From positions 3,195 through 67,194 of the forward strand of contig CAZOXU010000009.1 of NCBI GenBank assembly GCA_964583975.1: a stretch of DNA of 64,000 bases, written 5' to 3'. The translations under genes were made by a program, and so were the position numbers. The notes under the pieces are model-generated. The model ran no database searches and had not been told where the DNA came from. It was given only the letters and a program-made list of their open reading frames with translations. Below are positions 9,523-49,941 of this stretch, piece after piece (within the stretch, counting starts at the first letter, position 1; every line of letters starts with the position of its first letter). The DNA comes from an uncultured Planctomycetales bacterium (GTDB taxonomy: Bacteria > Omnitrophota > Gorgyraeia > Zapsychrales > Fredricksoniimonadaceae).

Positions 9523-10225
9523 GAATAAAAATTCAGAATATAAAGGCTTTCAACCAGCAGATTGTCGTGTTTTTTTTGATTTTGATAACACTATATCGAA
9601 GGGTGATGTGCTTGATGATATCATCCAACGTTTTTCCATCAATCGAGATTGGGTCGCTTTACAAGAGGCCTGGTTGGAAGAACGAATTAGTGCTAAGGAA
9701 TGTTTGTTAGGTCAAATGAAGGGAGTTCGGATTTCTCCTGCAGATTTGAGCCAATATTTGACCACCGTTGTTTTAGATCCACACTTTTCATCATTACTGG
9801 CCTGGTTGCGTAATTATGGCGTTGAGCCTATTATAGTCAGTGATAACTTCCAAACGATCATTGAGCAAGTTTTGCAGTATAATAATATCCACGGATTAAC
9901 GGTTTATGCCAACCATTTGGAATTTTCTAATGACAGTCTTGTTCCTTCTTTCCCATATCAAAATCCCAATTGTCGTTCTTGTGCGCATTGCAAGAAAACA
10001 CATTTTCAGAAAGATGATCCAAGAAGCATCGTTTACATTGGCGATGGACGTTCTGATATTTGTGCAGCCAAAGAATCAGACCGAGTGTATGCTAAGGATA
10101 CGCTTTTGAAATATTTCCAGAAACACAAATTAGCTTGTGTAGAGTTTGCAAATCTTGGCGATGTGCATGAGCATTTAAAGGAGGAGGCCAATGGAACAGT
10201 TGTTACGACGCAACGAAGGGGCTAA
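9515..10225 (+). CDS. HAD-superfamily phosphatase (DxDxT; MtnX/PSP-like)
   Basis: FFDFDNT motif I and IGDGRSD motif IV. I moved the start to the MLKNKN Met so it does not overlap the ACP. Confidence 0.6.
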   Translation: MLKNKNSEYKGFQPADCRVFFDFDNTISKGDVLDDIIQRFSINRDWVALQEAWLEERISAKECLLGQMKGVRISPADLSQYLTTVVLDPHFSSLLAWLRNYGVEPIIVSDNFQTIIEQVLQYNNIHGLTVYANHLEFSNDSLVPSFPYQNPNCRSCAHCKKTHFQKDDPRSIVYIGDGRSDICAAKESDRVYAKDTLLKYFQKHKLACVEFANLGDVHEHLKEEANGTVVTTQRRG

Positions 10226-11597
10226 GGACCAAAAACAAGAAGAGCTTTTAGCTAAAGAAGCCCAATATTGTTCTTGGGGTGATACAGTCCATTATGCCAA
10301 GGAAATTAAGGTTTTCAGCCGAACCGAAGGGATCTATGTTTATGACCGTCAAGGAGTCCAATACCTTGATTTGCAAATGTGGCATTCGGCTGCAAATTTC
10401 GGATATAAAAATGAACGTTTGAATAATATTTTAAAAGACCAGATCGATACCTTACCCCAGCTCAATAGCCAATATTTGCATGAAGAAAAGATTTTGCTTG
10501 CTGAAAAGATTGCTAAAAATGTTGAAAAAACTTTTGGCGTTAAAGGAAGGGTGCATTTTAATGTTGGTGGCGCGGCTGCTATTGAAGATGCGATCAAAAT
10601 TGTCCGTAATTATACAAAGAAAAATGCCATGTTTGCTTTTATGGGTGGTTATCATGGACGCACCTTAGGCGCAACCGCCATTACCTCAAGTTACCGTTAC
10701 CGAGAAAATTATGGAACATTCTCAGATCGGGCCTATTTCATAGAATATCCTTACCGTTTCCGTTGCACCGCTGCTAGTAAAGAAAAATGCTGTGACATGT
10801 CATGTTTCAAAGATTTTGAGAAGCTCTTTGATTCAGAATATTATTCGATCGTTAATCCTAAAACCAAAAATTGTGAATACGGAGCCTTCTTTGTCGAGCC
10901 AGTGCAGGCAACTGGCGGCTATATTGTGCCTCCTAAGGATTATTTTAAACAGCTTAAGAAGGTCTTAGACCGACATCAAGTCTTGTTTGTGGCTGATGAA
11001 GTTCACATGGGTTTCTTTAGAACAGGTAAGATGTGGGCGATTGAACATTTTGGCGTGGTCCCTGATATCATTGTGTTTGGCAAATCGTTTACCAATGGGC
11101 TTAATCCGCTTTCAGGAATATGGGCTAAGGAGCATTTGATTTCTCCAGAAATGTTTCCTGCAGGTTCAACGCATGCCACATTCTCTTCGAATCCTTTAGG
11201 AACAGCCGCTGCGCTGGGTGTCATGAATCTTATTGAAGATTCTGATTTCGCCACATCCGTCCCTCAGAAGGGCGAATATTTTGTCAAACGTCTTAAAAGT
11301 TTGATGAAAAAATACCCGGAAATTGGCGAGGTTGATGGTTTAGGATTGGCTTTGCGTATTGAAATCTGCCAGAAGGATGGCTTTACACCTAATCGTGAAT
11401 TGACCGATAAAATTATGAATATCGGATTAAAAGGTCAATTAACAGCTGGTGGTAAAGAACGTGGATTGCTCTTGAGCATTGGTGGATACTATAAGAATGT
11501 TTTTAATTTGGCTCCATCTTTGTATATTACTAATCAAGAAATAGATTTAGCTGTAGATTTATTTGATGAAGCTTTTACCAAAGCCTTGAAGACCTAA
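10191..11597 (+). CDS. Class-III (PLP, omega-type) aminotransferase
   Basis: AAIEDAIK, GGYHGRT, ADEVHMGFFRTG and FGK (PLP Lys) motifs. A strong RBS, AAAGGAGGAGG, lies upstream. Confidence 0.8.
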   Translation: MEQLLRRNEGAKDQKQEELLAKEAQYCSWGDTVHYAKEIKVFSRTEGIYVYDRQGVQYLDLQMWHSAANFGYKNERLNNILKDQIDTLPQLNSQYLHEEKILLAEKIAKNVEKTFGVKGRVHFNVGGAAAIEDAIKIVRNYTKKNAMFAFMGGYHGRTLGATAITSSYRYRENYGTFSDRAYFIEYPYRFRCTAASKEKCCDMSCFKDFEKLFDSEYYSIVNPKTKNCEYGAFFVEPVQATGGYIVPPKDYFKQLKKVLDRHQVLFVADEVHMGFFRTGKMWAIEHFGVVPDIIVFGKSFTNGLNPLSGIWAKEHLISPEMFPAGSTHATFSSNPLGTAAALGVMNLIEDSDFATSVPQKGEYFVKRLKSLMKKYPEIGEVDGLGLALRIEICQKDGFTPNRELTDKIMNIGLKGQLTAGGKERGLLLSIGGYYKNVFNLAPSLYITNQEIDLAVDLFDEAFTKALKT

Positions 11598-11694
11598 TTT
11601 TGTCGTGTGAATCAAATCAATTGACGAACCTCTCCATACCTTGTACTGTAAGCCGTCATTTATGCATCTTTTTCAACCAAGGCAGGGAGGACGA

Positions 11695-12699
11695 ATGAGA
11701 ATTACCGACGTAGCTCTACTTGTAAAAGGTGCAGTTGAGGGAAATGGTGAAATTGATATTATAGGCTTAAGTGGTCCAACTACGGCTAAGGCTAATGATT
11801 TAACCTTTGCTGTGGATGAATGCAAACTCTTAGTTGCTGAACAAAGCCTAACGGGTTGCATATTAACCACTAACACCGTCAGAAAATCTACTAAACCTCT
11901 CATCCGAGTCCATAATCCAAAGCTTGCTTTCTTAACTCTTTACCATGCATTGTATAAACCAGTTGTTAGGAAGTCTTTTGTCCATCCTACGGCCGCGATA
12001 GGTAATTTTGTAAAATTTGGGAATAATGTCTGGGTAGGTTCCCATGTAACAATCGAAGATAATGTTACTATCAAGGACAATAGTATTATCGAAAGTGGTT
12101 GCATCATTAAAAAGAATTGTTGTATAGGAGTCTCTTGTCATTTATATCCTCGCGTGCTTCTTTATGAAAATATTATATTAAAAGACAATGTCATCCTACA
12201 TGGCGGAGTCGTGGTTGGGTCTGATGGTTTTGGTTATGTGAAAGACCAAGGTGTAATTTATAAATTTCCGCAATTAGGTAAAGTTATTATTGAAGAAAAT
12301 GTCGAGATCGGATCTAATTCTACGATTGATAGGGGTTCTTTAGAGGATACGATCATAGGAGCTAATTCTAAAATCGATAATCTCTGCCATGTTGCTCACA
12401 ATGTGAAGATCGGAAAGAATCTCATTATGGCAGCACAAAGTGGGATTGCAGGAAGCACAGTGATAGGCGACAATGTTACGATCAGCGGACAGGTTGCCAT
12501 TACTGACAATGTCACAGTAGGCTCTAATGCTGTGATCGGTGGAAAAAGCGCTGTTATTGGTGATATCGATGATCGTTCGGTTGTTTGGGGAATTCCTGCT
12601 CGAAGCCTTGCTCAAACAAAAAGACAAATGGCTGTTGCTTCTTGGTTGACCAAGAATTTTTCCATAATTTCAAAGATTGTGAAACAAAAATCCTCTTGA
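11695..12699 (+). CDS. LpxD-like UDP-3-O-acylglucosamine N-acyltransferase (left-handed beta-helix / hexapeptide)
   Basis: N-terminal LpxD-type domain followed by long hexapeptide repeats (IGxNxxI). I set the start at the MRITD Met with a GGGAGG RBS rather than at 11641. Confidence 0.7.
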
Positions 12700-12727
12700 G
12701 AAATAACTTACAGAAGAGGAGTTAATT

Positions 12728-13000
12728 ATGATCCAAGAATTACCTATTCGAACTCCGCCGTTTACTCCGTTCAAATTTAAGAGATATTTTGAATCTAAAA
12801 ATAATAAGATCAGGATTTTTGGTTTATGCGAAGTGACAGGCAAGAATTTTGAAATATTTGTGCCGGTGGAAGGTTTTTTTGTCTATTTGCAGGGCTTTAA
12901 AAATATTGTAGAGGCTTTGTTTAGTTCTTCCAAAGAAGAGCGTGAGTTTATTTTGACAGGAACTTCGCCAGAAGGCTATAGAAGTCGTAGAGATCAATGA
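12728..13000 (+). CDS. Hypothetical small protein (90 aa)
   Basis: Good RBS (GAGGAG). Its stop overlaps the start of the downstream helicase. Confidence 0.35.
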   Translation: MIQELPIRTPPFTPFKFKRYFESKNNKIRIFGLCEVTGKNFEIFVPVEGFFVYLQGFKNIVEALFSSSKEEREFILTGTSPEGYRSRRDQ

Positions 13001-14385
13001 TGGATGCTTCCAAAGATTTTAAAAGTGTAGGTTTAAGTAAGGCCATGCTTGATAATCTCAAGTCCCTTGGTTATTTGGAGATGACACCTATTCAGGAAAA
13101 GGGCTTGCCATTTATTTTAAGTAAGCGGGATTTTATTGGTCAGGCTAATACTGGCAGCGGTAAAACAGCTGCCTTTGCTTTAGGCATCCTAGCCAAATTA
13201 GATTTAACCATTCCGATGCCACAGGCCCTGGTGTTGGTTCCTACGCGCGAATTAGCCGAGCAGGTAGCTAATGAAATCCGTCGCCTGGCACGCTTTACCA
13301 GTAATATTAAGGTGCTGACCATCTGCGGCGGTTCAGAAGAACGTCATAAGGTTAAGTCGCTCAAGCAGGGTGCGCATATCATTGTGGGAACTCCTGGTCG
13401 CATCACCAAATTACTCAAAACAGGAGTACTTATTACCAGTGATCTTAAGGTCTTGGTATTAGATGAAGCCGATCGTTTGCTAGAAATGGGATCAATTGAG
13501 GAAATAAACCGTATTGCCTCATTTACGCCCGTGGATCGCCAAACCATGTTGTTTTCTGCGACATTTCCTCACGGGATTAAAACATTAAGCGCCAGCCTGC
13601 AGGAAGATGCAGCGCAAGTGACTATTGACTCGCAACACCAAAATACAACCATCAAACAATTATTTTTTAAAGTCGAAGATCAAAAGAACGATGCCTTGTT
13701 GCGTCTTTTGGGACACTATAAACCAGAATCCTGCATTATTTTTTGTAATAGCAGGGAAGCGTGTAACACTGTCTCAGGATTGTTACGTACTAAAAAAATA
13801 GATTCTTTACAGATGCATTCAGATTTAGAGCAAGCTGACAGAACACTTATTTTAATCAAATTTGATAATAAAAGTTGCCGTATTATGGTTGCGACTGACT
13901 TAGCATCGCGTGGTCTGGATGTGAAGGATGTAGGTAGTATCATTAATTACGATTTGCCAAGCGACCCCGAGCTCTATGTTCATCGCATTGGAAGAACCGG
14001 ACGAGCGGGGCAAGAGGGGCTGGCGCTGAGCTTGTATACCCATAAAGAACGGGCCACTCTGAGAACGATGGGCACTTATTTAAAAACTGAGTGTATGATT
14101 AAAGAATTAAATGAATTGCATCCTATTCAACTGAGAGCTGACCGTCTTGTGGCAGAAATGTCGACCATTTATATTAGCGGCGGCAGGAAGGATAATATCC
14201 GTCCTGGCGATATCTTAGGTGCTTTGACCAAGGAAGCGGGGCGCAAAGCCCAGGACGTCGGGAAGATTCATATTTTAGAAGTTAATAGTTATGTAGCCAT
14301 CACCCCTGAAAAACAAGAAGAAGCAATCGAGCGACTGAACGCAGGGAAAATTAAAGGCCGAAAGTTTAGAGTTGGAAAAGCTTGA
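12997..14385 (+). CDS. dbpA: ATP-dependent DEAD-box RNA helicase, DbpA-like, with a C-terminal RNA-binding domain
   Basis: Motifs GSGKTAAF, PTRELA, DEAD, SAT and HRIGRTGRAG, plus a C-terminal DbpA RBD (GGRKDNIRPGDILGAL). Confidence 0.85.
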   Translation: MMDASKDFKSVGLSKAMLDNLKSLGYLEMTPIQEKGLPFILSKRDFIGQANTGSGKTAAFALGILAKLDLTIPMPQALVLVPTRELAEQVANEIRRLARFTSNIKVLTICGGSEERHKVKSLKQGAHIIVGTPGRITKLLKTGVLITSDLKVLVLDEADRLLEMGSIEEINRIASFTPVDRQTMLFSATFPHGIKTLSASLQEDAAQVTIDSQHQNTTIKQLFFKVEDQKNDALLRLLGHYKPESCIIFCNSREACNTVSGLLRTKKIDSLQMHSDLEQADRTLILIKFDNKSCRIMVATDLASRGLDVKDVGSIINYDLPSDPELYVHRIGRTGRAGQEGLALSLYTHKERATLRTMGTYLKTECMIKELNELHPIQLRADRLVAEMSTIYISGGRKDNIRPGDILGALTKEAGRKAQDVGKIHILEVNSYVAITPEKQEEAIERLNAGKIKGRKFRVGKA

Positions 14386-14454
14386 TTGATCCCTCCTTTT
14401 GTAGTTAGCAATTCTTTGTAGAATTACATAATTTTATACTCTCCGTAGATTTGT

Positions 14455-14480
14455 TATACCTTAGTACAATTGATTTATTT
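14455..14480 (+). promoter_or_regulatory. Conserved 26-nt motif TATACCTTAGTACAATTGATTTATTT, copy 1, upstream of the RR-HK-RR operon
   Basis: A near-identical copy (24/26) lies at 16887-16912. Contains GTACAA half-sites, repeated at 14489-14494. Confidence 0.45.
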
Positions 14481-14564
14481 GATGCTTTGTACAAAAATAT
14501 GCAAGTACACTAGATTTCTTGACGAGTTTTTGTATCTAATTTTGTTGATTTAAGGAGCAATGCC

Positions 14565-14957
14565 ATGACTTTATATAAAAAAAGAATTTATATTGTAGAT
14601 GATGACGAATCGGTGTGTCGTGCGCTTAAGACACTTTTAATGACTTTTGAGTTTGAAGTTAAAACATTTAATTCTGCACAAAGTTTCTTTGATGCTGTGC
14701 CCTATGATGAGCCTGGTTGTTTAGTTCTCGATATTCATATGCCAGGATTAGATGGATGGGCAACTCAGAAAAAGATTCTTGAATCTGGATCAAAACGTTC
14801 TGTTATTTTTATTTCTGCCGAGAAGCATGAAAATGCTGCGGACCGTGCTTTGGAAGTAGGGGCTGTGGGGTTTTTACAAAAACCGTTTAATGGTCAGACC
14901 TTGGTCGATCTTATTAATGTTGCCTCAGATAATATCGATATGACTGTGAAAAATTAA
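14565..14957 (+). CDS. Single-domain response regulator (CheY-like receiver)
   Basis: DD..D acidic pocket, LVLDIHMPGLDG phospho-Asp and a conserved K. Confidence 0.75.
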   Translation: MTLYKKRIYIVDDDESVCRALKTLLMTFEFEVKTFNSAQSFFDAVPYDEPGCLVLDIHMPGLDGWATQKKILESGSKRSVIFISAEKHENAADRALEVGAVGFLQKPFNGQTLVDLINVASDNIDMTVKN

Positions 14958-14960
14958 AAG

Positions 14961-16241
14961 ATGACTATTAAAATCAAATCAAAAGAAAAAACAACGGTTA
15001 ACCAAAAGAAGGTTAAAAAACCGTTATTGAGAAGAATAACTCGGAATATTTTAGAGGAGAAGGTGCGGCAACAAACAGATGAGCTGAAAATCAGAAGCGG
15101 GCAATTAAAACAAGGGGCCGATAGAGAGAAGATTGCAGAAGAAAAAATTCATATTCGAACCAAGGCTATGGAAGCCACATTAGATGGTATTTTTATTATT
15201 GATGCCAAGAAATCTAATTTTCCCATTATTTATGCCAATCCATCTTTATTGAGTATTACTGGTTATACAAAGAATGATGTCATTGGGCACAACTATTTTC
15301 TACTCTATGGATCAGATGCTGATTTGCGTATTGTTGATGAAATAAAGAAAACTATGTATCGAGGAGAATCGTTTTATGGAGAGATGTTAAATTTTAGGAA
15401 AAATGGCAAGAAATTTTGGAGTTTATTACGTATTGCTCCAGTGCGTGATACAAAGGGAAACGTCACCCATTATGTAGGGATTCAAACGGATACTACACTG
15501 ATAAAGCAAAGAGATTTAGAAATTGAAGAACAGCGCGAAGAGCTTTTGCATGTCACACGGGTAGGAAAGCTTGCGGAATTTGTTTCGTCTTTAGCACATG
15601 AAATTAGCCAACCTTTGACGGCTATTCTTTCTTATGCTCAAGCAGCTCAGCGTCTGTACGCAGGAAGGGAGCCCCAATTACAAGAAATTCTACAGTACAT
15701 TATTAATGATGATCAGAGGGCTGCTGAGGTTATTCGGCGTTTACGGTCGTTGTTAAAAAAGAACAAGCCAGCATTTGAGTATTTAGATATCAATGACCTT
15801 ATTAAGGATACAGTTAAACTTATTATGACCCATATTACTGTTAGGAATAAAATTATCGTATTCGATCTGGATACTAATCTTCCGCACATACAAGGGGATC
15901 GTATACAATTGCAACAGGTACTCTTGAATCTTATTAGCAACAGTTTAGAAGCAATGGATGATCGCACTGGTTCTCTGGAACTGTTGATTAGATCATCGCT
16001 TAAAGATGCCAATATAATTATGGTGGAAGTTAAGGATTCAGGATGCGGCATTCCAAAAGAAAATATGAAGAAGCTTTTTGCGCACTTTTTTACTAGCAAG
16101 CCAGATGGTTTGGGTATGGGTTTGTCGATTAGCCGTTCCATTGTGGAAGAGCATGGTGGTCGTTTAGAAGCAAAGAATAATCGTGATCACGGTGCAACTT
16201 TCCATTTCACAATTCCTGTTTATGTAAAGAAGGATCAATGA
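14961..16241 (+). CDS. PAS-domain sensor histidine kinase (FixL-like)
   Basis: PAS fold (residues ~60-180), a HisKA H-box LAHEISQPLTAI, and the HATPase N, G1 and G2 boxes. Confidence 0.8.
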   Translation: MTIKIKSKEKTTVNQKKVKKPLLRRITRNILEEKVRQQTDELKIRSGQLKQGADREKIAEEKIHIRTKAMEATLDGIFIIDAKKSNFPIIYANPSLLSITGYTKNDVIGHNYFLLYGSDADLRIVDEIKKTMYRGESFYGEMLNFRKNGKKFWSLLRIAPVRDTKGNVTHYVGIQTDTTLIKQRDLEIEEQREELLHVTRVGKLAEFVSSLAHEISQPLTAILSYAQAAQRLYAGREPQLQEILQYIINDDQRAAEVIRRLRSLLKKNKPAFEYLDINDLIKDTVKLIMTHITVRNKIIVFDLDTNLPHIQGDRIQLQQVLLNLISNSLEAMDDRTGSLELLIRSSLKDANIIMVEVKDSGCGIPKENMKKLFAHFFTSKPDGLGMGLSISRSIVEEHGGRLEAKNNRDHGATFHFTIPVYVKKDQ

Positions 16242-25208: not shown

Positions 25209-25487
25209 ATGTCTGATCCGTCACAATACCAACAATGGATGATGGAACAAGAAGCGCTCTGGGAAGCACGATGCACACGCTGTGGTGCTTGTTGTGGTTC
25301 TTTAGAAGATCCTTGCGAGAATCTCCGACGTAATGAAAATAATCAGTATTACTGTGCGGTCTATGAACGTCGTTTTGGTGTATGGCATACCATCTCTGGT
25401 AAAGAACTACGCTGCGTTCCTATCCGTCAGAAACTAGCCTTGGGTCAAAGTTGGCCTGGAGATCAACACTGCGGTTATAAACAATGA
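25209..25487 (+). CDS. CxxCxxCC zinc/iron-chelating domain protein (YkgJ/UPF0153-like)
   Basis: CTRCGACCGS motif plus additional Cys. Its stop overlaps the start of the next gene (ATGA). Confidence 0.5.
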   Translation: MSDPSQYQQWMMEQEALWEARCTRCGACCGSLEDPCENLRRNENNQYYCAVYERRFGVWHTISGKELRCVPIRQKLALGQSWPGDQHCGYKQ

Positions 25488-26374
25488 AATATTATTCCCC
25501 CCAACGACAAGATGATGCCCAAACTCGATTTCTTTCGGGTGTGCCGATTGATCCGAATCCACGGATACGCTTGGAGAATGGGTCTGGCGAATTGACCATG
25601 CGAGCGATGGATTTGATTTGTCCGATTGGTATGGGACAGCGTGGATTGATTGTGGCGCCGCCAGGATGTGGCAAAACAACCTTCTTAAAGCATTTGTGTC
25701 AGTCGATTCTTAAAGGTTACCCAGATATAAAATTGCATTGTCTTTTGATCGATGAACGCCCTGAAGAAGTCACTGATTTTACCCGCTCGGTAAAAGCCGA
25801 TGTGCGCAGTTCCTCTTCTGACCAAAGCTACGAACATCATTTGCAAACAGCCGATCAATTGATGCGCGATGTTTTCCAGGAAACAGCCCAGGGCGGCAAT
25901 GTCATGGTAGTGATTGATTCTTTGACCCGTCTGGCTCGGGTGCATAATGCCCAAAGGCCCTCAGGTGGCAGAACCCTTTCAGGAGGTGTGGATGCACGAG
26001 CCATGGAAGTGCCGAGGCGTATTTTTGGTTATGCCCGTAAGATTGAAGGTGGTGGCTCGCTGACAATTTTAGCAACCATCCTGGTTGAAACGGGTAGCCG
26101 TATGGATGAAGTTATTTTTGAGGAATTTAAAGGAACGGGTAATATGGAAATTGTGCTCTCGCGCGAGATAGCTAATCATCGTATTTTTCCAGCTATTGAT
26201 ATTGCCAAGAGTGCAACGCGTAAACAAGAGCTTTTATTTGAGGCCAAGCAGTATCAGCAGCTTGAGAAATTTAGACGTTCGCTCGCAGGGCTTAATAAGC
26301 TCGAGGCAGCCCAAGCGTTAGTTGAAAAGCTAAAAGCTAATCCTACCAACGACGGATTATTGAGTACGTATTAA
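25484..26374 (+). CDS. rho: Rho-family RNA-dependent ATPase lacking the N-terminal primary RNA-binding (OB/CSD) domain
   Basis: Aligns with E. coli Rho from about residue 120 to the end: P-loop [30 protein letters not shown]-loop region, SLTRLARV, R-loop GGVDA...[10 protein letters not shown], and [29 protein letters not shown]. Confidence 0.75.
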
Positions 26375-26377: not shown

Positions 26378-26590
26378 TTATTCGTTTTCTCTTCGAACAT
26401 CCATCGTAACAATTTCTCCACCTCTGATCTTTAGGCATATGACAATAGGTGCGCAGCAGACTTCACAATCCACAATGAGTTCTTGGGTAGAGCCGGCTGT
26501 AAGGTCAAGCAAAAGTTCGTTGTCTTGACTGCAGTAAGGACAAGCAAAGGGTTCAAATTGTTCTAAAGACATACGTATGCAGTGTAACAT
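26378..26590 (-). CDS. CPXCG-motif cysteine-rich small protein
   Basis: FACPYCSQDNELLLD...ELIVDCEVCCAPIV matches the CPXCG family pattern. Confidence 0.55.
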   Translation of the reverse strand: MLHCIRMSLEQFEPFACPYCSQDNELLLDLTAGSTQELIVDCEVCCAPIVICLKIRGGEIVTMDVRRENE

Positions 26591-26691: not shown

Positions 26692-26719
26692 TTGACAATC
26701 AAGAAATATGTGGTATCTT
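26692..26719 (+). promoter_or_regulatory. Sigma70-type promoter (TTGACA, 16-17 nt spacer, TGgTATCTT extended -10) with an overlapping 9-bp inverted repeat operator
   Basis: TTGACA at 26692-26697 and TGgTATCTT at 26711-26719. The palindrome ATTTCTTGA-caa-TCAAGAAAT spans 26687-26707. Confidence 0.5.
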
Positions 26720-26768: not shown

Positions 26769-29700
26769 ATGAAACGTTCGATCGCCATAGGCATCCTTAT
26801 AAGCTTTGTTACTACTATCATCTGTCCAGCCCGTAGCTATGCTGCGCCAGGCCAGTTAAACCTACCTGTTCCTGGAACTATGGTGAATTTGAGCCAAAGC
26901 TTTGCACCCGTGATTTTAAAGGGTGTCAGAGTTTATCCCGATAATCCCTTACGTTTTGATTTTATTCTTGATACCGGAGATTCCAAATTAAAGGGCCAGG
27001 CGCTTAAAGATGAATCCAACCGTTTAATCAAATATTTCTTAGCCTCTTTGACTGTTCCAGAAAAGGATCTGTGGGTGAATCTTTCGCCATATGAAAAAGA
27101 TCGGATTGTTCCTGAATCTTTTGGTGTCACCCAAATGGGCCGCGATCTTTTGGCTGAGGATTATATTCTCAAGCAAATGACCGCTAGTCTTATCTATCCT
27201 GAAGATGAATTAGGTAAGAAGTTTTGGAAGAGAATCTACGAAGAAGCACAAGCCAAATATCACACCACCAATATCCCAGTAAATACCTTTAATAAAGTTT
27301 GGATTGTTCCAGAGCACGCCAGTGTTTATAAGAATGGTACCTCAGCATTCGTCACCAAGGCGCATTTGAAGGTTATGTTAGAGGCTGATTATTTAGCGAT
27401 GAATAAGAATGCCGTGTCTGCACAGGCGCAGGATGCAAATCAAATCGGCTCCCAAATCGTCCGTGAAATTGTCCTACCAGCTCTTGAAAAAGAAATTAAT
27501 GAAGGTCAAAACTTTATCCAACTTAGACAAATCTATAATTCTCTTATCCTAGCCATTTGGTTTAAACGTAATCTGAAGGAAAGTGTGCTTGGTAAAATCT
27601 ACATGGGCCAAAATAAAGTTGGTGGGGTAGATATTCAAGATAAGAATGAAAAACAAAAAATTTATCAATCGTATCTCGAAGCCTATAAAAAGGGCGTTTA
27701 TAACTATATTAAGGAAGACCGTGATCCGGTTACTCAAAAAACAACGCCTCGTAAATATTTCTCTGGTGGAGCTTGGATGTCGCGAGCAACAAATGTTTTT
27801 AGCGATGAAGCGACATTGGGTGATGTGTCGATCGATCCTGATCACGCCATGCTGGTCAAAGCTAATTTAAAAGCCGAAGAAGAGAATATTTCTGCCCCAA
27901 AAGATCGTGCTATGATTGCAGATATTCCTCGGGTGTTGCAAGATAAAGATGTTCCGGCATTCAGAAGTATTCGAGATCGAATTTTGTGGCTTTCTACTCG
28001 GATGATTGAAGAGGCTAATCGTAACAAAGAAGATGTGAATGTGGGCGGACATCAGGCTGCAGCTGCTTCGTCTTTGGATATCATGATGGCCTTAGAATTA
28101 TTTACTATGAATGGCCCTGATTTTGTGGCTCATAAACCTCACGCAGGTCCGGTTTATCATGCAATTCAATACCTTTTAGGAAAATTATCTAAAGAAACTT
28201 TAAGCCGCTTACGTGAAAATGCAATTTCTCCAGATTATAGTTCTCGTTTACAAGAAACAATTAAGGCTCTTCCGCCAGAAGCTGCTGAGCAATTCAGGGT
28301 TTTTCAGTCAAAATTATTAGAAGATCTTCCGCTTAGCGCCAATAGTGATTTAGATAAGGAAGGACTCCATTCATATCCAGGAATGGCAGATCCAGATCGA
28401 GTGCTTATTCCCACAGGTTCAGTGGGTCTTGGTCCTGCTGCAACAATTGCATTAGCACTCTCCTACAAATGGATGAAAGATCATGGGTATAATGTTCCTG
28501 ATCCACGGTTTTATGCTGTGGTTGGAGATTCTGAATTTGGTGAAGGTAATTATCAGGAAATACTGCCTTTAGTGCAGCAATTTGGTCTTAAAAATATAAC
28601 TCACATTTTGGATTATAATCGTCAATCCTTGGATGGTAATACCCAACAATGGCGTTTACAAAATATTAAAGATCGTTATGCAGCCAATGGTTGGAAGATC
28701 ATTGAGTTAAAGTGGGGCAGTAAGCTTAAGGCAGCTTTTGCTGATGGCGGCCAGAAATTCCGAGAAGTGATGGATGCTTTGCCTCAGGAAGAATATCAAG
28801 ATATGACGGGTAAAACTGGAGCAGAGATTCGAGAATATTTGATCAATAAAGAAACTTCATTAGCTAGATTTTTGGAGAAATATAATGATGAACAGCTTTA
28901 TGATCTATATACGGATTTGGCAGGACATGATTTGCAGGTATTAACTTCAGCATTGCAAGAAGCAAAGATCAGCGGACAATCGGTTGCTATTATCGCCCAT
29001 ACAATTAAGGGAAAAGGTTTAAGGCCATTGATTGGTCAGCCTGGCAATCATTCGATGCGTTTAACTCCAACTGCACTGGAAGATTTGCGTAAAGAAATGG
29101 GAATATCCGAAGTTGAACCTTTTCCTGCCTTTGATGCAGAATCTGTAGAAGGTAAGCTATTAAATAATCTAAAAGATAGGATCGATTTAGAACGTCAGGC
29201 TGCAGCAGAACTTATCAGTTCTAATTCTGGTGCTAATAAAACATTTGATGTAAGTAATATTCCAAGTCGTATAACACCATCTTCTGCGATAGTTCCTACA
29301 GGACTCTCCAATGTGTCTACCCAGGTTTGGTTTGGGTATATCATTTCCATGCTTCGGGGAATTTCTCAAAAGTCTGAGGCTGAATTAACTGATGAAGAAC
29401 GTTCTTGGTTGCCGATTGCTAAAAGAATTGTAACCATTTCTCCGGATGTGGCTACTTCCACAGGTGTTGGTAAAAAAGGAAAATTGGCAGGGTATGGACC
29501 TGATAGCTTAGAGGATACACATATTCGTCTGGGTATTGAAGAAATGAATGCTCTGACGGTTGCTGCAGCTTTAGGAAAAATGAGAGATTTCATGGGCCAA
29601 TCAATTCTGCCCGTTGTAACCATTTATGACATGTTTTTGTTTCGTCGCGCCTTAGACCCAGCATTTTACGCTCAATATTGGAAATCGCGTGTTCTTATGG

Positions 29701-31055
29701 TTGGAACACCATCAGGATCAACTCTTGCACCAGAAGGAGCTCAGCACCAGTCGATTACTTCAGCCGTTATTGGCGGGGCTTTGCCGAATACCATTGTTTG
29801 GGATCCAGCTTTCGGTGTTGAACTTGAATACATATTAGGCGATGAATTAAAAAGAACCTTAAGCGGTGACTATGAGGGAAGAAATGTAATCTATTTGCGA
29901 GGCTCAACCTTGGATCAAAGTCGTAAGGAATTAGCCGCTCGTTTGGCTGTTCAAAAACGTTTTAAAGGCCGTGAGATTTCAGAGAAGAATTTGCCGGAGG
30001 AATGGTCAGAAGACCTTTTAAAAGGCGGATATCGTTTGGTTGATTATACGGGTTACGCGGCTTATGATCCTAATGTGAATGTGGTTAATATTATTACCGT
30101 TGGCCCAATGGTCAAAGAGGCGCTCAGGGCTTCCGATAAACTTTTAGAACGAGGTATTTATGCGAATGTGATTGTAGTGAGTAGTTCATCGCTTTTACAT
30201 GGGAATTTAGGAAGAAAAGATAATTATCAACATCTAAGGAAATTGATTCCTGTTAACGAAACGTTTCTTACTCCAACAGTTGCTGTTGCTGATGCTTCTC
30301 CTGATTATTTGGCTGGGATCGCCGGTATTCTTGGTTTAAATTTGGAAATGCCAACCTTAGGTTTGCGTAAAAATGGAGTTTCAACTCGAGGAACAGCTCG
30401 TATTTATATTCATCATGGAATTTCGTTTAAAAATATTGCTGAAACAGCTTTGGCCGAGATTCGCCATAGAGATAGTGGTCATAGTCCCAAGGTTCAGATG
30501 ATGCAGCAGTGGGCTAGTAAACAATGGCAGGCAAAAATATATGCTGAAATAGCTCGTCTTGAAGATCTTTTAGAGAAAACATCATCTTTTGGTGGGGCAT
30601 ATATTCGTCAACAAATTGCGTTTTATGAAGAATTGCTAGAGAATGGAACTTTAGATGCAGCCATGAATGCCGCATTAAATGACCGATTAACAGAGTTGCG
30701 GTCTGTAATGGAAACAGCAGGGGATCTTACAGTGCGAACTATTTTGCAAAATGAAATTGATGGATTAGGTCATTTTGTGTCTGAAAAAGATTCTGCGCAA
30801 ACCGTAACCAAGAAACAAGAGCTTGGAGGTATCGACTTAAACGCAGCTAAGATGAATATTAAAGAAGAAGGTAATGATATTTCCGCCAGAGGCGGATCCG
30901 CCTTTGGCGGAAAACTTCCACCGGTGGACTTAAAAGCCTTTGAAAACAAGAATTTCAACGGCTTTACTCCAATTATTATTGAAATTGTTCCTATCAAAGA
31001 TCTTCCCATGGTTCTTGGAGCATCGCAGCCGCAAGAGAAACTTGCTTCAGTCTAG
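26769..31055 (+). CDS. Giant (1428 aa) signal-peptide protein containing a complete pyruvate dehydrogenase E1 (AceE-type, homodimeric TPP) domain, flanked by ~350-aa N-terminal and ~190-aa C-terminal extensions
   Basis: Sec signal MKRSIAIGILISFVTTIICPARSYA-AP. E1 motifs: VGGHQAAAASS, EGLHSYPG, GSVGLGPA, TPP-binding GDSEFGEGN...LDYNRQSLDG, and IIAHTIKGKG, plus a transketolase-like C-terminal domain. Confidence 0.75.
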   Translation: MKRSIAIGILISFVTTIICPARSYAAPGQLNLPVPGTMVNLSQSFAPVILKGVRVYPDNPLRFDFILDTGDSKLKGQALKDESNRLIKYFLASLTVPEKDLWVNLSPYEKDRIVPESFGVTQMGRDLLAEDYILKQMTASLIYPEDELGKKFWKRIYEEAQAKYHTTNIPVNTFNKVWIVPEHASVYKNGTSAFVTKAHLKVMLEADYLAMNKNAVSAQAQDANQIGSQIVREIVLPALEKEINEGQNFIQLRQIYNSLILAIWFKRNLKESVLGKIYMGQNKVGGVDIQDKNEKQKIYQSYLEAYKKGVYNYIKEDRDPVTQKTTPRKYFSGGAWMSRATNVFSDEATLGDVSIDPDHAMLVKANLKAEEENISAPKDRAMIADIPRVLQDKDVPAFRSIRDRILWLSTRMIEEANRNKEDVNVGGHQAAAASSLDIMMALELFTMNGPDFVAHKPHAGPVYHAIQYLLGKLSKETLSRLRENAISPDYSSRLQETIKALPPEAAEQFRVFQSKLLEDLPLSANSDLDKEGLHSYPGMADPDRVLIPTGSVGLGPAATIALALSYKWMKDHGYNVPDPRFYAVVGDSEFGEGNYQEILPLVQQFGLKNITHILDYNRQSLDGNTQQWRLQNIKDRYAANGWKIIELKWGSKLKAAFADGGQKFREVMDALPQEEYQDMTGKTGAEIREYLINKETSLARFLEKYNDEQLYDLYTDLAGHDLQVLTSALQEAKISGQSVAIIAHTIKGKGLRPLIGQPGNHSMRLTPTALEDLRKEMGISEVEPFPAFDAESVEGKLLNNLKDRIDLERQAAAELISSNSGANKTFDVSNIPSRITPSSAIVPTGLSNVSTQVWFGYIISMLRGISQKSEAELTDEERSWLPIAKRIVTISPDVATSTGVGKKGKLAGYGPDSLEDTHIRLGIEEMNALTVAAALGKMRDFMGQSILPVVTIYDMFLFRRALDPAFYAQYWKSRVLMVGTPSGSTLAPEGAQHQSITSAVIGGALPNTIVWDPAFGVELEYILGDELKRTLSGDYEGRNVIYLRGSTLDQSRKELAARLAVQKRFKGREISEKNLPEEWSEDLLKGGYRLVDYTGYAAYDPNVNVVNIITVGPMVKEALRASDKLLERGIYANVIVVSSSSLLHGNLGRKDNYQHLRKLIPVNETFLTPTVAVADASPDYLAGIAGILGLNLEMPTLGLRKNGVSTRGTARIYIHHGISFKNIAETALAEIRHRDSGHSPKVQMMQQWASKQWQAKIYAEIARLEDLLEKTSSFGGAYIRQQIAFYEELLENGTLDAAMNAALNDRLTELRSVMETAGDLTVRTILQNEIDGLGHFVSEKDSAQTVTKKQELGGIDLNAAKMNIKEEGNDISARGGSAFGGKLPPVDLKAFENKNFNGFTPIIIEIVPIKDLPMVLGASQPQEKLASV

Positions 31056-32629: not shown

Positions 32630-33673
32630 TTACATGAATCTACTTTTGTCGATAGCTTTGAAGTAGGCGTCTTGTTTGGCGACCTTGCCTTGAGTGACTA
32701 AATCCATGAGGCAGTTATCCATCAGAATCATTCCTGCAGCTTTATTGACTTGAATTTCATTAGAGAGTTTATTGACTTCACCATTTTGAATCAAATTGCT
32801 AATGGCTGAGGTTTGAATGAGTATTTCATAGGCACCCCAACGGCGGCCTCCTTTGATATCGGGTAGCAGTTGTTGGGCGACGATGGCGCTTAAGTTATTT
32901 GCTAGAATAGTACGAATCTGGTTCTTACGATTGGTTGGAAAGGTATCAATAATACGGTCGATGGTTTTTGCCGCGCAATTGGTATGCAAGGTAGCAAAAA
33001 CCAAGATGCCCATTTCTGAAGCATTAAGAGCTAGCTCCATAGTCTCGCGATCACGCATTTCACCCACCAGAATCACATTGGCATCACTTTTGATAGCGGT
33101 GCGCAGTCCGTTGGCAAAGCTTTGTGTGTCACGTCCCACTTCTCGGTGACAGATAATTGATTTTTTATTTTGATGCACGAACTCGAGCGGCTCTTCGAGC
33201 GTAATGATTTTATATTCATAGTTGGTGTTAATGTAGTCAATGAGTGCCGCGAGCGTGGTTGATTTTCCACTACCTGTAGGCCCTGTGACAAAGACCAGAC
33301 CTTTACGAAACTTGGCGAAATCTTTGATTTTCTCAGGGAGGCTTAATTCTTCAAACGAACGAATCACCGAGGGGATAAGTCTAAAAATGGCCCCTAATCC
33401 AAAGAAGTGTCGAAAATAATTTGCACGAAAGCGGGCCGAGCTGCCCAGCTCATAAGCAAAATCCAAATCTCCATGCTGGGTAAAGTATTGCCAACGATGT
33501 TCAGGTAGAATTTCTGACAACAGTTTTTTGATGCGCTCAGGCGAAAGGACTTCATCGGCAATGGGAGTCAAATGGCCATTGATGCGAGCCAGAGGCTGCT
33601 TGCCTTGTTGTAAATGAAGGTCAGAACCTTTGCGATCAATTAAAATTTGAAATAGTGCGTCAATTTCAGCCAT
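32630..33673 (-). CDS. pilU: Type IV pilus retraction ATPase, PilT/PilU family (second copy)
   Basis: PilT N-terminal domain, Walker A GPTGSGKST, and Asp and His boxes. 347 aa. Confidence 0.75.
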   Translation of the reverse strand: MAEIDALFQILIDRKGSDLHLQQGKQPLARINGHLTPIADEVLSPERIKKLLSEILPEHRWQYFTQHGDLDFAYELGSSARFRANYFRHFFGLGAIFRLIPSVIRSFEELSLPEKIKDFAKFRKGLVFVTGPTGSGKSTTLAALIDYINTNYEYKIITLEEPLEFVHQNKKSIICHREVGRDTQSFANGLRTAIKSDANVILVGEMRDRETMELALNASEMGILVFATLHTNCAAKTIDRIIDTFPTNRKNQIRTILANNLSAIVAQQLLPDIKGGRRWGAYEILIQTSAISNLIQNGEVNKLSNEIQVNKAAGMILMDNCLMDLVTQGKVAKQDAYFKAIDKSRFM

Positions 33674-34823
33674 TCGATAACACCTGAGGATTTTTAACGC
33701 GTTCTTTAGCTTGTTCCATGGATATTTTTCCTTCAGTCAGTAATTGCTTGATAGCATTATCCATCAACTGCATACCAGCAGCCTTACCGGTTGCCATCGC
33801 ATTGTTAATTTGCATAATTTTACCTTCACGAATCATGCTTGAGACTGGCGCGGTGACCATTAAGACTTCAAAGGCAGCGACCATAGATTTACTATCTACA
33901 GAAGGAATCAATTGCTGGCAAATCACCCCACGTAGAGATTCAGAAATCATGTTACGGATAATAGGCTGTTCGTCCGCTGGAAACGAGTCAACAACTCTGG
34001 AAATAGTCTGGGCTGCGCTTAAGGTGTTCATAGTACCGATGACCAAATGACCGGTCTCTGCTGCTGAAATGGCTAGCTGAATGCTTTCAAGATCGCGCAA
34101 TTCACTAACCACAATCACATCAGGGTCTTCGCGCATGGCAGCCCTCAGGGCATTTTGTTGATTGTGAGTATGTAAGCCTATTTCGCGTTGGGTAAATTCG
34201 CAATGATGTGGTTTGTAGACGATCTCGATCGGTTCTTCAATGCTGATAATATGGTCATGACGGTTCTGGTTGATCATCTCAACTAAGATGCCTAAGGTTG
34301 TTGTTTTGCCGCAGCCGGCCGGACCAGCGACAATGACCATGCCCTGGGCCCATTTGGTTAAACTGGCACACGAGGCAGGCATGCCGCTTGTTTCAAAAGA
34401 GGGAATGCTAGTAGAAATTAAGCGTATGGTTGCATCAATTCCAAGTCGTTGGCGCACCATGGCCATGCGGCATCGGCCAAAACCTTCAACCGTATGAACG
34501 TACTCTTTATCACCCGTTTGTAGAAGCTCTTGCATCACGGGCGCAGGCAGTGATTTGTTTAAAATTTTGGCGATAGCTTCATCCGTCAGCCGGGCAGTGC
34601 CAATTTTCTTTAGTTTTCCTAATTGACGAAAAATAATTGGTTCTCCAATCGTTAAATGAATATCGCTGGCGCCAGAAGCGCGAGCAAAGGCAATGATCTC
34701 ATTAAGTGAATTGGAGGGAGAAATTTCTGTGGGTACACTTAAAGCCGTAGAGCCTAATCCCGTCGAACCAATGAATTGTTCTGGGAGGGATTTAAGATTG
34801 CTTGGATTGTGTTCATGGCTCAT
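33666..34823 (-). CDS. pilT: Type IV pilus twitching-motility ATPase PilT
   Basis: GPAGCGKTT Walker A, GTMNTLSAAQTISR His box and an MIREGK-type C-terminal motif. Confidence 0.75.
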   Translation of the reverse strand: MSHEHNPSNLKSLPEQFIGSTGLGSTALSVPTEISPSNSLNEIIAFARASGASDIHLTIGEPIIFRQLGKLKKIGTARLTDEAIAKILNKSLPAPVMQELLQTGDKEYVHTVEGFGRCRMAMVRQRLGIDATIRLISTSIPSFETSGMPASCASLTKWAQGMVIVAGPAGCGKTTTLGILVEMINQNRHDHIISIEEPIEIVYKPHHCEFTQREIGLHTHNQQNALRAAMREDPDVIVVSELRDLESIQLAISAAETGHLVIGTMNTLSAAQTISRVVDSFPADEQPIIRNMISESLRGVICQQLIPSVDSKSMVAAFEVLMVTAPVSSMIREGKIMQINNAMATGKAAGMQLMDNAIKQLLTEGKISMEQAKERVKNPQVLSNG

Positions 34824-46224: not shown

Positions 46225-47880
46225 TTGAAAAGACCATTCAGGTTTCTGTGTATTTTATCGATGGTTTTTGCTGTTTTTCTGCACCAATCCCCATTGCATG
46301 CTTTAGACGCTGCAATGCCTCTCGAATCGAAGAAAATATCTTTAGACTACAAGAATGCTGAATTGACCGATGTGCTCAAAGCCATGTCTTATTCTTACAA
46401 TCTTAATATCGTGGTGGCTAAGGACATTACCGGCAAAGTATCAGCCCAATTAAAAGACGTGACCGCTGAAGAAGCTTTAAATGCTATTTTGACCGGCAGC
46501 AGTTATGCCTATATGCGTAAAGGTGACATTATTTACGTCCAGTCTAAAGAAGAGATGGATCTGGTGACGGAAACCCTCGTTTTGAATTATATTCCCCTCG
46601 AACAAGCCCAAACGTTATTAAGTGGTGCTATCACTCGATTAAAAGCTAACATTCAGGTCAATAAAGATGCCAATGCTTTGGTGGTGACAACCAATCCAGG
46701 AGATTTAGAAAAATTAAAAGTGATTTTGCAGGGCATTGACGTTCCTCCGATTCAGGTCTTAATTGAAGCCCAGATCGTCGATATTAATAGATCTGATATT
46801 CAACAGATTGATAGCGCTGTTAGTCTGATTTATTCAGCTAATCAAGTGGGAGGGACGTTCTCCAAATTTAGTCCCAACGTTACAGCAGGATCTGCCTCTA
46901 ATACAGCAGCGACAAGCACATCTAACACTTCATCTTCATCCACATCTTCCACTTCAGGAGATCAGGGTGTGTTTTCTTTTGCTAATAACAATTATTCTCA
47001 AATGTCTATTACAGCCTTAGTTAATCAACATAAAGCACGTGTTATCGCTTCTCCGTCGATTGCAACTCTTAATGGCCATGAAGCTAGCATTGTGATTGGG
47101 GAGAAATATCCTGTTGTGACCTCAACGTCTTCGGCTGGAGGGACGGGTGGCAGCATTGTCAATCAAACTACCACATCTTATATCGATATTGGAACCAAGC
47201 TTAAAGTCACTCCTCGCGTTTCACCAGATGGTTGGATTACTATGAAAATTGAACCCGAAGTTTCTTCCGTGTTAGGTGTAACGTCCAATGGAAATCCTAA
47301 CATTGCGACCCGTTCAGCCAATACAGAGGTTCGGGTGAGAGATAATGAAACGATCGTGATAGGGGGCCTAAAAAGTAAAAGTGATTTGCGAGATAAAAAT
47401 GGTATTCCAGGCTTAAAAGATATCCCCATTCTTGGAGCTTTATTTCAAAGTCATAATAAATCCTTGGTTGACGGGGAATTGACTGTTTTAATTACACCAC
47501 ATGTCATCCCTATGGTCCATCCAGAGAAAGCAAAAAATCCTCCACCAAGGAAAGTTATGACAGGTGAAGATAGCGTACTGGTCCATAACATCTTGAATTA
47601 TATTGATACTCTCGAGGCAGATAGGTCTAAGGATCGGGCTAAAAATCTTTACCTAAGCGGGGAACAAATTAAAGCTTACAGAATGCTTTTGCAGGAATTT
47701 CCTGCTTCGGGTAAAGGAGATTATTGCCTTTATAGAATTGCTTTGAAATATGCTAAGGACTTTGGTAATTGCAAGGCAGCTAAAGAAACTTTTGCGGAGT
47801 TACAGGAGTTGTTTCCCACAAGTTCTTTTATTCCTGTGACAGAATCTTTGGTCGATGCTTGTACAGCTGTGCAGCTTTAA
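46225..47880 (+). CDS. pilQ: Type IV pilus secretin PilQ-like (TTG start)
   Basis: Signal peptide, N-terminal secretin-N domains, an S/T-rich linker, and a C-terminal secretin domain (ATLNGHEASIVIGEKYPV..., GGLKSK...IPILGALF). Confidence 0.8.
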   Translation: MKRPFRFLCILSMVFAVFLHQSPLHALDAAMPLESKKISLDYKNAELTDVLKAMSYSYNLNIVVAKDITGKVSAQLKDVTAEEALNAILTGSSYAYMRKGDIIYVQSKEEMDLVTETLVLNYIPLEQAQTLLSGAITRLKANIQVNKDANALVVTTNPGDLEKLKVILQGIDVPPIQVLIEAQIVDINRSDIQQIDSAVSLIYSANQVGGTFSKFSPNVTAGSASNTAATSTSNTSSSSTSSTSGDQGVFSFANNNYSQMSITALVNQHKARVIASPSIATLNGHEASIVIGEKYPVVTSTSSAGGTGGSIVNQTTTSYIDIGTKLKVTPRVSPDGWITMKIEPEVSSVLGVTSNGNPNIATRSANTEVRVRDNETIVIGGLKSKSDLRDKNGIPGLKDIPILGALFQSHNKSLVDGELTVLITPHVIPMVHPEKAKNPPPRKVMTGEDSVLVHNILNYIDTLEADRSKDRAKNLYLSGEQIKAYRMLLQEFPASGKGDYCLYRIALKYAKDFGNCKAAKETFAELQELFPTSSFIPVTESLVDACTAVQL

Positions 47881-47919
47881 GTAATGACTCTATAACGTAG
47901 AAACCCTAGAAAGATTTTT

Positions 47920-48297: not shown

Positions 48298-48308
48298 ACA
48301 AAATCGTT

Positions 48309-49934: not shown

Positions 49935-49941
49935 TTTAACC

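Follow-up and report, generated by a model that had tools for sequence, protein, structure and literature searches.

A gene in a 64,000-nucleotide stretch of DNA from an uncultured Omnitrophota bacterium (contig CAZOXU010000009.1 of assembly GCA_964583975.1, positions 3,195 to 67,194; the whole stretch is referred to here as the window) encodes a protein that embeds an E1-like thiamine diphosphate (ThDP) enzyme between conserved N- and C-terminal parts. We suggest that this protein is probably one cargo variant of an Omnitrophota-specific modular export or targeting chassis, in which a signal peptide, an N-terminal module of ~310 amino acids (aa; hereafter the N-module) and a C-terminal tail (hereafter the C-tail) surround interchangeable, mostly cytoplasm-type enzymes. 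This reading draws on the size and modularity of a family restricted to Omnitrophota, on its signal-peptide features, on the co-variation of the two flanks, on a short motif at the flank-cargo boundaries, on the exclusion of cysteine, and on a cargo that has an intact ThDP site and no features of a pyruvate dehydrogenase (PDH) complex. The open reading frame (ORF) is exactly the one delineated by a first-pass annotation made from the letters alone, and its GC content is that of the surrounding DNA. The gene is built as follows.

26769-31055, + strand: complete coding sequence with an ATG start, 1428 aa, 158.5 kDa; in order, signal peptide, N-module, linker, E1-like cargo, linker and C-tail
26769-26843, + strand: predicted Sec-type signal peptide, aa 1-25 (MKRSIAIGILISFVTTIICPARSYA, followed by AP), with K2, R3, a hydrophobic stretch at 5-23 and the predicted cleavage site S-Y-A/A-P
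26844-27770, + strand: conserved N-module, about aa 26-334, from LPVPG (32-36) to the invariant PRKYFSGG (327-334); pI 9.1, no cysteine
27771-27953, + strand: acidic N-side linker, aa 335-395, with two D-x-A-M motifs (D358HAM and D379RAM)
27954-30503, + strand: E1-like ThDP core, aa 396-1245, no cysteine, placed by Pfam, NCBIfam and PDB matches and by alignment
30504-30824, + strand: C-side linker, aa 1246-1352, with D1296AAM and the variant D1341SAQ
30825-31052, + strand: conserved C-tail, aa 1353-1428, GGIDLN...NGFTPIIIEIVPIKDLPMVLG...KLASV, of the 'I-x-GF' subtype

When the whole protein was used as the query, at least 4,804 matches were significant, and only two of them (P0002 and P0003) have the E1 core. 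The rest resemble the query over just its first ~25%, at 55-66% identity, and differ from it in their Pfam domains; where a source is named, it is Candidatus Omnitrophica or Omnitrophota. With residues 1-336 as the query, phmmer recovered at least 8,100 clusters from 1.84 billion representative proteins, 6,275 of them at E ≤ 1e-30. In all 150 phmmer matches listed, the N-module starts within the first ~60 residues of proteins that range from 376 to 4,969 aa, and among these matches it is never internal or repeated, with one copy per protein. An assembly chimera was rejected, since the same architecture occurs in thousands of independent contigs (NCBI, JGI, ENA, and Logan). The terminal parts, which the first-pass annotation had called novel, are not peculiar to the window protein but recur as conserved modules across a very large family, and the ~540 aa that it had set aside as unknown sequence are the key feature of the protein and no mere appendage. 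Nor does the claim that such a fusion has no precedent hold, as signal peptide, N-module and C-tail occur in at least 8,100 clusters, many with cytoplasm-type enzymes as cargo, and two preprints (cited below) also bear on it.

The cargo is diverse in kind. We directly confirmed TIM, GAPDH and class I aldolase within one protein, as well as GAPDH, phosphofructokinase, a Ser/Thr kinase, and HPr. Precomputed annotation adds PGK, PGI, pyruvate phosphate dikinase (PPDK), phosphoglucomutase, UDP-glucose pyrophosphorylase, and PP2C; M48 peptidase with ABC1 kinase, methyltransferases, GNAT, NUDIX, HAD, and PLD; and response regulator, FHA and HEAT/TPR-repeat domains. Among the top 120 homologues, a ~2,400-aa cargo set of Peptidase_M48 plus an ABC1/UbiB-type kinase recurs (P0025, P0030, P0039, P0051, P0102, and others), which suggests conserved multi-domain cargo sets and not merely random shuffling.

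To describe the distribution of the family, we scanned one genome per GTDB species and obtained at least 569 confirmed loci, with details taken from the best 80. By title, 50 of these 80 loci are Omnitrophota or Omnitrophica (Ca. Aceula among them, following the placement by NCBI), 29 are from metagenome-assembled genomes (MAGs) called 'uncultured Planctomycetales', and one is Ca. Elulimicrobium. This last locus, the only informative non-Omnitrophota title among the best 80, is an N-module gene at 112-1248 of a 6.3-kb contig (L050) labelled Candidatus Elulimicrobium (Patescibacteria group); mis-binning or lateral transfer could explain it. Single MAGs contribute up to six or seven loci, two or three family genes sit together at 11 of the 80 loci, and the start of several family genes lies just downstream of another member's C-tail, in tandem. 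N-module genes (54-58% identity) were also seen on three viral-classed IMG/VR contigs (L084, L085, and L086), which could be misclassified host fragments, prophage-flanking DNA or instances of true phage carriage.

In the alignment, the N-module has many invariant polar and aromatic residues and a sharp end at the invariant PRKYFSGG. The window copy, which is 55-68% identical to the other members seen, holds all of the family invariants (LPxPG, WVNLSPYE, GRD, TFNKxW, LRQ, and PRKYFSGG; aa 32-334). At the opposite end, a tail of ~70-88 aa forms the extreme C terminus of 103 of the 120 top homologues, with the consensus GGIDLNP..LN.Q..G..I.F..P..L..L.N...GF.PVIINI.P..NLP.FLG, in many cases extended by ~10 residues that end in ..LS... 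The window protein has GGIDL...GF.P.I..I.P...LP..LG of this consensus at aa 1353-1417, followed by 11 residues that end in KLASV. The structure model of the N-module is helix-rich alpha/beta and weak (pLDDT 59), and the AlphaFold2 (AF2) model of the C-tail (pTM 0.20) is extended, without strands and without an autonomous fold. Neither flank matched Pfam or NCBIfam (E ≤ 1), PHROGs or PADLOC (E ≤ 0.01), or PDB sequences. A metalloprotease, hinted at by weak ADAM matches, was rejected because there is no HExxH motif. A profile search for C-tails without an N-module returned mostly C-terminal fragments from short contigs. Proteins of 73-202 aa with little beyond the C-tail were also present on contigs of 40-218 kb (P0336, P0366, P0373, P0387, and P0425); these may be stand-alone tail peptides or pieces of frameshifted genes.

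The two flanks vary together. Across 186 members, the sample used for all family statistics on signal peptides and flank co-variation, the pairwise distances of N-modules correlate with those of C-tails (Mantel r 0.82, p 0.001). N-modules of the 'DNPF' type pair with 'NAPGF' tails (83 vs 12), and those of the 'DNPL' type pair with 'I-x-GF' tails (35 vs 4). Because both pair types coexist inside single MAGs, including the window's genome, the coupling of the flanks holds among paralogues while the cargo changes freely.

The linkers between flanks and cargo are punctuated by D-x-A-M, which was observed 486 times in the family against 31 expected (15.5-fold). Per 1000 aa, the motif occurs 9.9 times in the 100 aa after the N-module and 7.2 times in the 60 aa before the tail, compared with 5.2 in the tail (as 'DPAML'), 0.8 in the cargo, and 0 in the N-module. 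The D-x-A-M(-L/V) form is also built into one tail subtype ('LDPAML'). Judging from its placement, D-x-A-M could be a processing site or a binding motif.

Features of a cleaved signal peptide are present in the window protein and throughout the family. The window protein has a positive n-region, a hydrophobic h-region (aa 5-18), small residues at -3 and -1, and no further transmembrane (TM) segment; aa 5-23 are its sole TM-like segment. A start codon downstream of the hydrophobic segment, which would have removed the signal peptide, is excluded: M1 is the only possible start because codons 2-37 contain no in-frame ATG, GTG or TTG and because the family-invariant LPxPG occupies residues 32-36. 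In the family, K/R lies ahead of the hydrophobic region in 95% of members, the n-region is net positive in 93%, and a small-x-small motif precedes LPxPG in 163 of 186, with the consensus A-x-A/Q-(D/E)-F-x-L-P-x-P-G (the slash marks the predicted cleavage site) before the module. The signal-peptide-like N terminus that the first-pass annotation had pointed out is thus genuine and is kept at the protein level across the family. Two other kinds of N terminus were considered and rejected: a lipoprotein, as no lipobox is found in the family, and a type IV prepilin, as the G/FTLIE motif is absent. We infer from these sequence features that the protein is exported by Sec and that its signal peptide is cleaved.

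The cysteine content of the family is exceptionally low. None of the 1,403 residues of the mature window protein is a cysteine; the precursor has a single one (C19), in the signal peptide. Pooled over the N-module family, cysteine makes up 0.09% of residues, and 42% of members are cysteine-free despite a mean length of ~1,400 aa. The corresponding values are 1.12% and 6.6% for non-family ORFs at the same loci (Mann-Whitney p = 6e-47; ~12-fold depletion in the family), 1.17% and 11.6% for the remaining ORFs of the window, and 0.74% and 0 of 119 for free-standing E1-like homologues. With a crude classifier, proteins of the same genomes separate into predicted signal-peptide proteins (median 0.52% cysteine, 34% cysteine-free) and cytoplasmic-like proteins (median 1.11%, 9% cysteine-free). 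The avoidance is selective, since a GAPDH cargo keeps its catalytic cysteine (SCTTNA). Exclusion of cysteine from the Sec-exported proteins of some bacteria has been documented and is seen as an adaptation to oxidising extracytoplasmic conditions (PMC2823432). For an extracytoplasmic fate of the present family, cysteine exclusion is the strongest independent support.

We then examined the cargo itself. Profile searches confirmed the E1 similarity that the first-pass annotation had proposed: Pfam matches are Transketolase_N at aa 537-652 (E 3.8e-16), PDH_E1_M (8.4e-11) and Transket_pyr (9.4e-11) at 884-1032, and weak transketolase-C matches at 1096-1207; the NCBIfam match is TIGR00759 aceE (E 1.9e-55, 188.3 bits vs a cutoff of 859.9); and the closest PDB match is E. 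coli E1 (1l8a, E 6.5e-37). The core comprises a PP (ThDP-binding) domain with GDSEF...N617, a Pyr domain at ~884-1032, and a transketolase-C-like domain at ~1096-1207. All of the landmarks picked out in the first pass are there in the stated order (VGGHQAAAASS, EGLHSYPG, GSVGLGPA, GDSEFGEGN, LDYNRQSLDG, and IIAHTIKGKG); the E1 region is real, and its span is better given as about aa 396-1245 than as 350-1240. We aligned the core (MAFFT) to E. coli AceE from NC_000913 and found the catalytic equivalents H428 (H106 in E. coli), H458 (H142), Y536 (Y177), D587 (D230), N617 (N260), Q619 (Q262), K747 (K392), E925 (E571), Y953 (Y599), F956 (F602), E989 (E636), and H993 (H640).

The cargo departs from AceE at the places that would connect it to a PDH complex, and the description of it as a full AceE-type enzyme cannot be kept. 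Its TIGR00759 score is far below the cutoff, and its identity to E. coli AceE is 24%. The alignment starts at E. coli residue ~77; ahead of this point, the window protein has the N-module and family linker in place of an E2-binding region (residues ~1-55 of E. coli E1 are those that we take to bind E2). H407 of the lipoyl-interacting loop has no counterpart in register, and the neighbouring 'NHS' histidine is kept in this lineage. Among free-standing proteins, the nearest relatives of the cargo fall into two groups, one of ~790 aa ('E1 component / transketolase-like TK C-terminal') and one of ~937 aa (Bdellovibrio-type 'pyruvate dehydrogenase'); they align over 97-99% of the core at 33-39% identity. 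They have the same substitutions relative to AceE as the window cargo (the NHS loop and K at Q140) but no signal peptide, N-module or C-tail, and they contain cysteine; we found no functional characterisation of them in the literature. We found only three other N-module proteins with an E1 cargo: P0002 (52% identity), P0121/P0003 (50%), and L037 (72% in the core; Omnitrophica WOR_2 GWA2_47_8, whose two apparent ORFs result from an N-run gap). All retain the signal peptide, N-module and C-tail, with 0 to ~860 aa of extra cargo ahead of the E1 core.

As the first-pass annotation had noted, no E2 or E3 gene is adjacent, and there is none in the whole 64-kb window. Likewise, the E1-cargo orthologues have no neighbouring E2 or E3 genes, and there is no synteny around them. 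A locus from an Omnitrophota MAG (L047) carries a canonical aceE (1393 bits)-aceF-lpd operon without N-modules (3902-9638, - strand), divergent from an N-module gene at 9989-15211; its aceE and lpd exceed their equivalog cutoffs. Therefore, the phylum has a conventional PDH, and the window cargo belongs to a separate E2-independent lineage. The window protein is a divergent E1-like enzyme and not the E1 of a PDH complex, and its cargo is most plausibly a stand-alone 2-oxoacid decarboxylase or carboligase.

Taken as a chassis with exchangeable cargo, the protein might work in the following way. First, the signal peptide would send the unfolded chain through Sec and be cut after ARSYA. Second, the N-module and C-tail, which co-vary, would together let the protein be targeted to, or dock with, a machine or partner common to the family. 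Third, the D-x-A-M motifs enriched in the linkers would mark the boundaries between flanks and cargo and might be processing or binding sites. Fourth, the cargo, with its catalytic residues conserved, would be an E2-independent, catalytically competent E1-like ThDP enzyme that decarboxylates pyruvate or another 2-oxoacid outside the cytoplasm of the producer. Given the predicted dependence of these bacteria on hosts, the protein most likely acts at the cell surface, at the host interface or within a host or prey cell. Since the cargoes need ATP, NAD, ThDP or S-adenosylmethionine (SAM), the cytoplasm of another cell or a tight cell-cell interface would be the most coherent destination. The adhesin role that the first-pass annotation had floated found no evidence.

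A bolder form of this proposal is possible, though we hold it tentatively and lean against it. Here, a phylum-wide chassis would send central-metabolic and signalling enzymes into or onto host or prey cells, D-x-A-M would be the sites of cargo release, and an 'exported metabolism' would run or hijack the carbon flux of the host. The delivered set might then include most glycolytic steps, PPDK, kinases, phosphatases, methyltransferases and an E2-independent E1-like enzyme.

Several observations weigh against the chassis proposal. No fold or function is assignable to the N-module, given the low pLDDT of its model (59) and a PDB without a match by sequence or structure. Cytoplasmic cofactors (ThDP, ATP, NAD, and SAM) are unexpected in the periplasm or outside the cell, which leaves activity there unexplained unless the cytoplasm of another cell is reached. 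Joint inheritance, with no physical or functional coupling, could account for the co-variation of the flanks. Across the 80 loci, family genes have no transporter, protease or partner gene as a consistent neighbour, and a type II secretion system (T2SS)/type IV pilus (T4P)-like cluster in the window, described below, lies 15 kb from the E1-cargo gene, a link that is circumstantial.

The main rival explanation, which we judge rather unlikely, is that the proteins are exported but retained in the envelope (periplasm or surface) as an assembly. The tail of one member would dock in its own N-module or in that of another, giving non-covalent enzyme strings or coats, a modular counterpart of the giant multi-enzyme proteins of the phylum. 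Such docking would suit a C-tail that, in its model, has no autonomous fold, as is the case for peptides that fold on binding. It would also suit the co-variation of N-module and C-tail subtypes even inside genomes, the recurrence in linkers of the DPAML of one tail subtype, and the conservation of the N-module beyond that of any cargo, with its many invariant polar residues. Giant surface 'coat' proteins with metabolic domains are reported in the phylum, and cysteine exclusion fits this explanation equally well. However, the interaction between N-module and C-tail is putative, the N-module is never internal or repeated among the matches listed, and ATP-, NAD- or ThDP-dependent enzymes outside the cytoplasm are left unexplained.

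A purely cytoplasmic role appears improbable. Here, the hydrophobic N terminus would only tether the protein to the membrane or act as an assembly helix, the N-module would be a scaffold or regulator on the cytoplasmic side, and the cargo would be active in the cytoplasm of the producer. The nature of the cargo speaks for such a role: it is overwhelmingly cytoplasm-type (glycolysis, kinases, PP2C, response regulators, HTH, and a MutS-like ATPase), it relies on cytoplasmic cofactors, and published reconstructions count glycolytic genes in all Omnitrophota genomes, with fused and free copies not separated. Topology signals and cysteine statistics nonetheless disfavour it. A cleaved signal peptide accords with the K/R on the N-side, with a hydrophobic region that is short, with the -3/-1 rule and with the acidic residues past the A-x-A site; the window protein lacks a second TM segment that would bring the chain back to the cytoplasm; cysteine is depleted 12-fold relative to cytoplasmic-like proteins of the same genomes and is also depleted relative to the free-standing E1 homologues; and a separate canonical cytoplasmic PDH exists in the phylum. 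An ordinary AceE with lineage-specific extensions, partnered by E2 and E3 encoded elsewhere, can be dismissed as very improbable, for although AceE gives the best match in both PDB and NCBIfam and the catalytic residues are retained, a score of 188 bits against a cutoff of 860, 24% identity, a missing E2-binding region, an H407 out of register, the lack of E2/E3 genes in the window or beside orthologues, a true aceE-aceF-lpd operon in the phylum without an N-module, and a signal peptide with cysteine exclusion all speak against a member of a cytoplasmic complex.

We compared the chassis with known systems. With AceE (TIGR00759; 1L8A), the cargo has in common the three-domain ThDP fold in the same order, the Mg/ThDP motif GD[GS]...N, the activating glutamate (E571, here E925), and the active-site His/Tyr. 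Unlike AceE, the window protein has a ~45-aa insertion near aa 485-530, a signal peptide and the family flanks, and it lacks cysteine in its mature part and the equivalent of AceE residues 1-76. Closer to home are the giant proteins of Omnitrophota ('archaeovorins' and other long proteins), which range from ~5,000 to 147,000 aa and join signal peptides or TM helices to methyltransferase, kinase, PPDK, phosphoglucomutase and other metabolic Pfam domains (bioRxiv 10.1101/2023.11.21.568195, 10.64898/2026.06.07.730766). The same preprints have already raised the topology paradox and noted T2SS/T4P genes near giant Omnitrophota genes, and published work infers host-dependent or predatory lifestyles for the phylum. 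Such nearby T2SS/pilus genes fit a role for machinery of this type without establishing one. Unlike the family described here (376-4,969 aa in the sample seen, mostly with no internal TM helices), the giant proteins are reported without mention of an N-module, C-tail or D-x-A-M.

Polymorphic toxin and effector systems (PMC3482391) similarly combine conserved trafficking parts with swappable domains, have many paralogues per genome and form tandem arrays. In the Omnitrophota family, however, the variable part is internal between two flanks and consists of housekeeping-type enzymes, not nucleases or deaminases, and the sequences are not similar. We saw no immunity genes beside family genes, and the cargo is internal and enzymatic, with no C-terminal toxin domain. 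Cargo of the type IX secretion system (T9SS) resembles the family in its N-terminal Sec signal and in a conserved ~70-90-aa element at the extreme C terminus common to many unrelated proteins. Yet the family tail is predicted to be extended whereas the T9SS C-terminal domain is a beta-sandwich, the family has an extra 310-aa N-module, and T9SS is a Bacteroidota system; no NCBIfam or Pfam match to a T9SS sorting domain was found in aa 1241-1428.

Two-partner secretion (TPS) offers another parallel, as TpsA proteins (a signal peptide, a ~250-aa TPS domain and a long passenger) have a conserved N-terminal domain right after the signal peptide and large variable passengers. The passengers of type V systems are generally poor in cysteine. 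The modelled N-module is helix-rich alpha/beta, not the beta-helix of TpsA; no TPS or haemagglutination domain was matched in Pfam at E ≤ 1 in aa 1-395, and no POTRA/ShlB-type (TpsB) neighbour was found. In cellulosomes, many enzymes carry a common ~70-aa C-terminal docking module, and dockerin-cohesin pairing is a possible model for docking between C-tail and N-module. Unlike dockerins, the family has no dockerin (PF00404) match or duplicated Ca-binding loops, and its cargo is not carbohydrate-active.

Outside the gene, three further features of the window concern its expression and the family.

26692-26719, + strand: best sigma-70-like promoter match (TTGACA, 16 nt, TATCTT, with TG), putative and a consensus match only, ~50 nt upstream of the start codon
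26687-26707, + strand: perfect 9-nt inverted repeat (ATTTCTTGA-caa-TCAAGAAAT), overlapping the -35 hexamer of the putative promoter
1-3525, + strand: second family member, its 5' end cut by the window edge, with an 'NAPGF'-subtype C-tail at 3319-3522

By its position over the -35 hexamer, the inverted repeat may be an operator. An Rfam search of the whole window gave no match, hence no riboswitch or other known RNA upstream of the gene. The cargo of the second family member (>1,100 aa) has no Pfam match at 1e-4. It contains an 'NHLHFQ' (H-x-H-x-Q) motif, which presumably resembles that of GalT/HIT-type nucleotidyltransferases.

Directly before the intergenic region of the E1-cargo gene lies a gene for a 296-aa protein (25484-26374, + strand) that consists solely of an ATP-synt_ab-type nucleotide-binding domain, with small cysteine-rich ORFs beside it, including one for a CPXCG protein (26378-26590, - strand). 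A DEAD-box helicase gene follows the E1-cargo gene, and the downstream genes are unrelated housekeeping genes; just past the helicase gene are two tandem PilT-type T2SSE ATPases (32630-34823, - strand). The window also encodes an RND efflux system and, at 46225-59149 (+ strand), a complete T2SS/T4P-like cluster with a secretin, a GspE with an MshEN domain (cyclic di-GMP (c-di-GMP)-type), GspF, three pseudopilins, and PilM. Within the cluster, a 745-aa prepilin-like protein (52501-54738) joins Laminin_G_3 and Stig1-like domains to a Hint domain, which is of the intein-like autoprocessing kind; another LamG protein is encoded at 54754-55947.

To ask what accompanies the family elsewhere, we clustered 810 ORFs from the 80 loci. 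Recurrence among the neighbours was limited to generic signalling proteins of the receiver/GAF-HD-GYP kind, a histidine kinase, and an ABC-F ATPase. The most recurrent cluster, found at 14 of the 80 related loci, includes a GAF plus HD-GYP (c-di-GMP phosphodiesterase-type) protein of the window (59209-60699, - strand), and GGDEF genes lie directly upstream of the P0002 orthologue (L002). These genes may hint at c-di-GMP control of family genes, or such domains may simply be abundant in the phylum.

Neither the literature searched nor Pfam, NCBIfam or PDB yielded an account of the N-module or C-tail, of the way in which these co-vary, of punctuation by D-x-A-M, or of cysteine exclusion. What was already known is that very long Omnitrophota proteins combine signal peptides or TM helices with metabolic domains; what appears to be new is a modular family with defined flanks that co-vary, D-x-A-M boundaries and cysteine exclusion. 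If host delivery or self-assembly were demonstrated, the system could prove to be categorically new. There is also a warning for annotation, as KEGG-style reconstructions of Omnitrophota may count exported fusions as steps of cytoplasmic pathways. Should export be confirmed, the flanks could also find use as portable tags for export or display.

The Omnitrophota, a widespread group of uncultivated and ultra-small bacteria, are believed to live as dependants or predators of other microbes. The giant proteins of the phylum, for which annotation is poor, are an acknowledged puzzle. Our finding isolates from this puzzle a simple, recurring and very abundant building plan, with at least 8,100 clusters and several to many copies per genome. 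The paradox of metabolic domains on secreted proteins thereby turns into testable questions: what binds the N-module and tail, where the proteins go, whether D-x-A-M is cleaved, and whether the enzymes act in another cell. If export is confirmed, the family would be an unusual case of core metabolism that has been systematically relocated.

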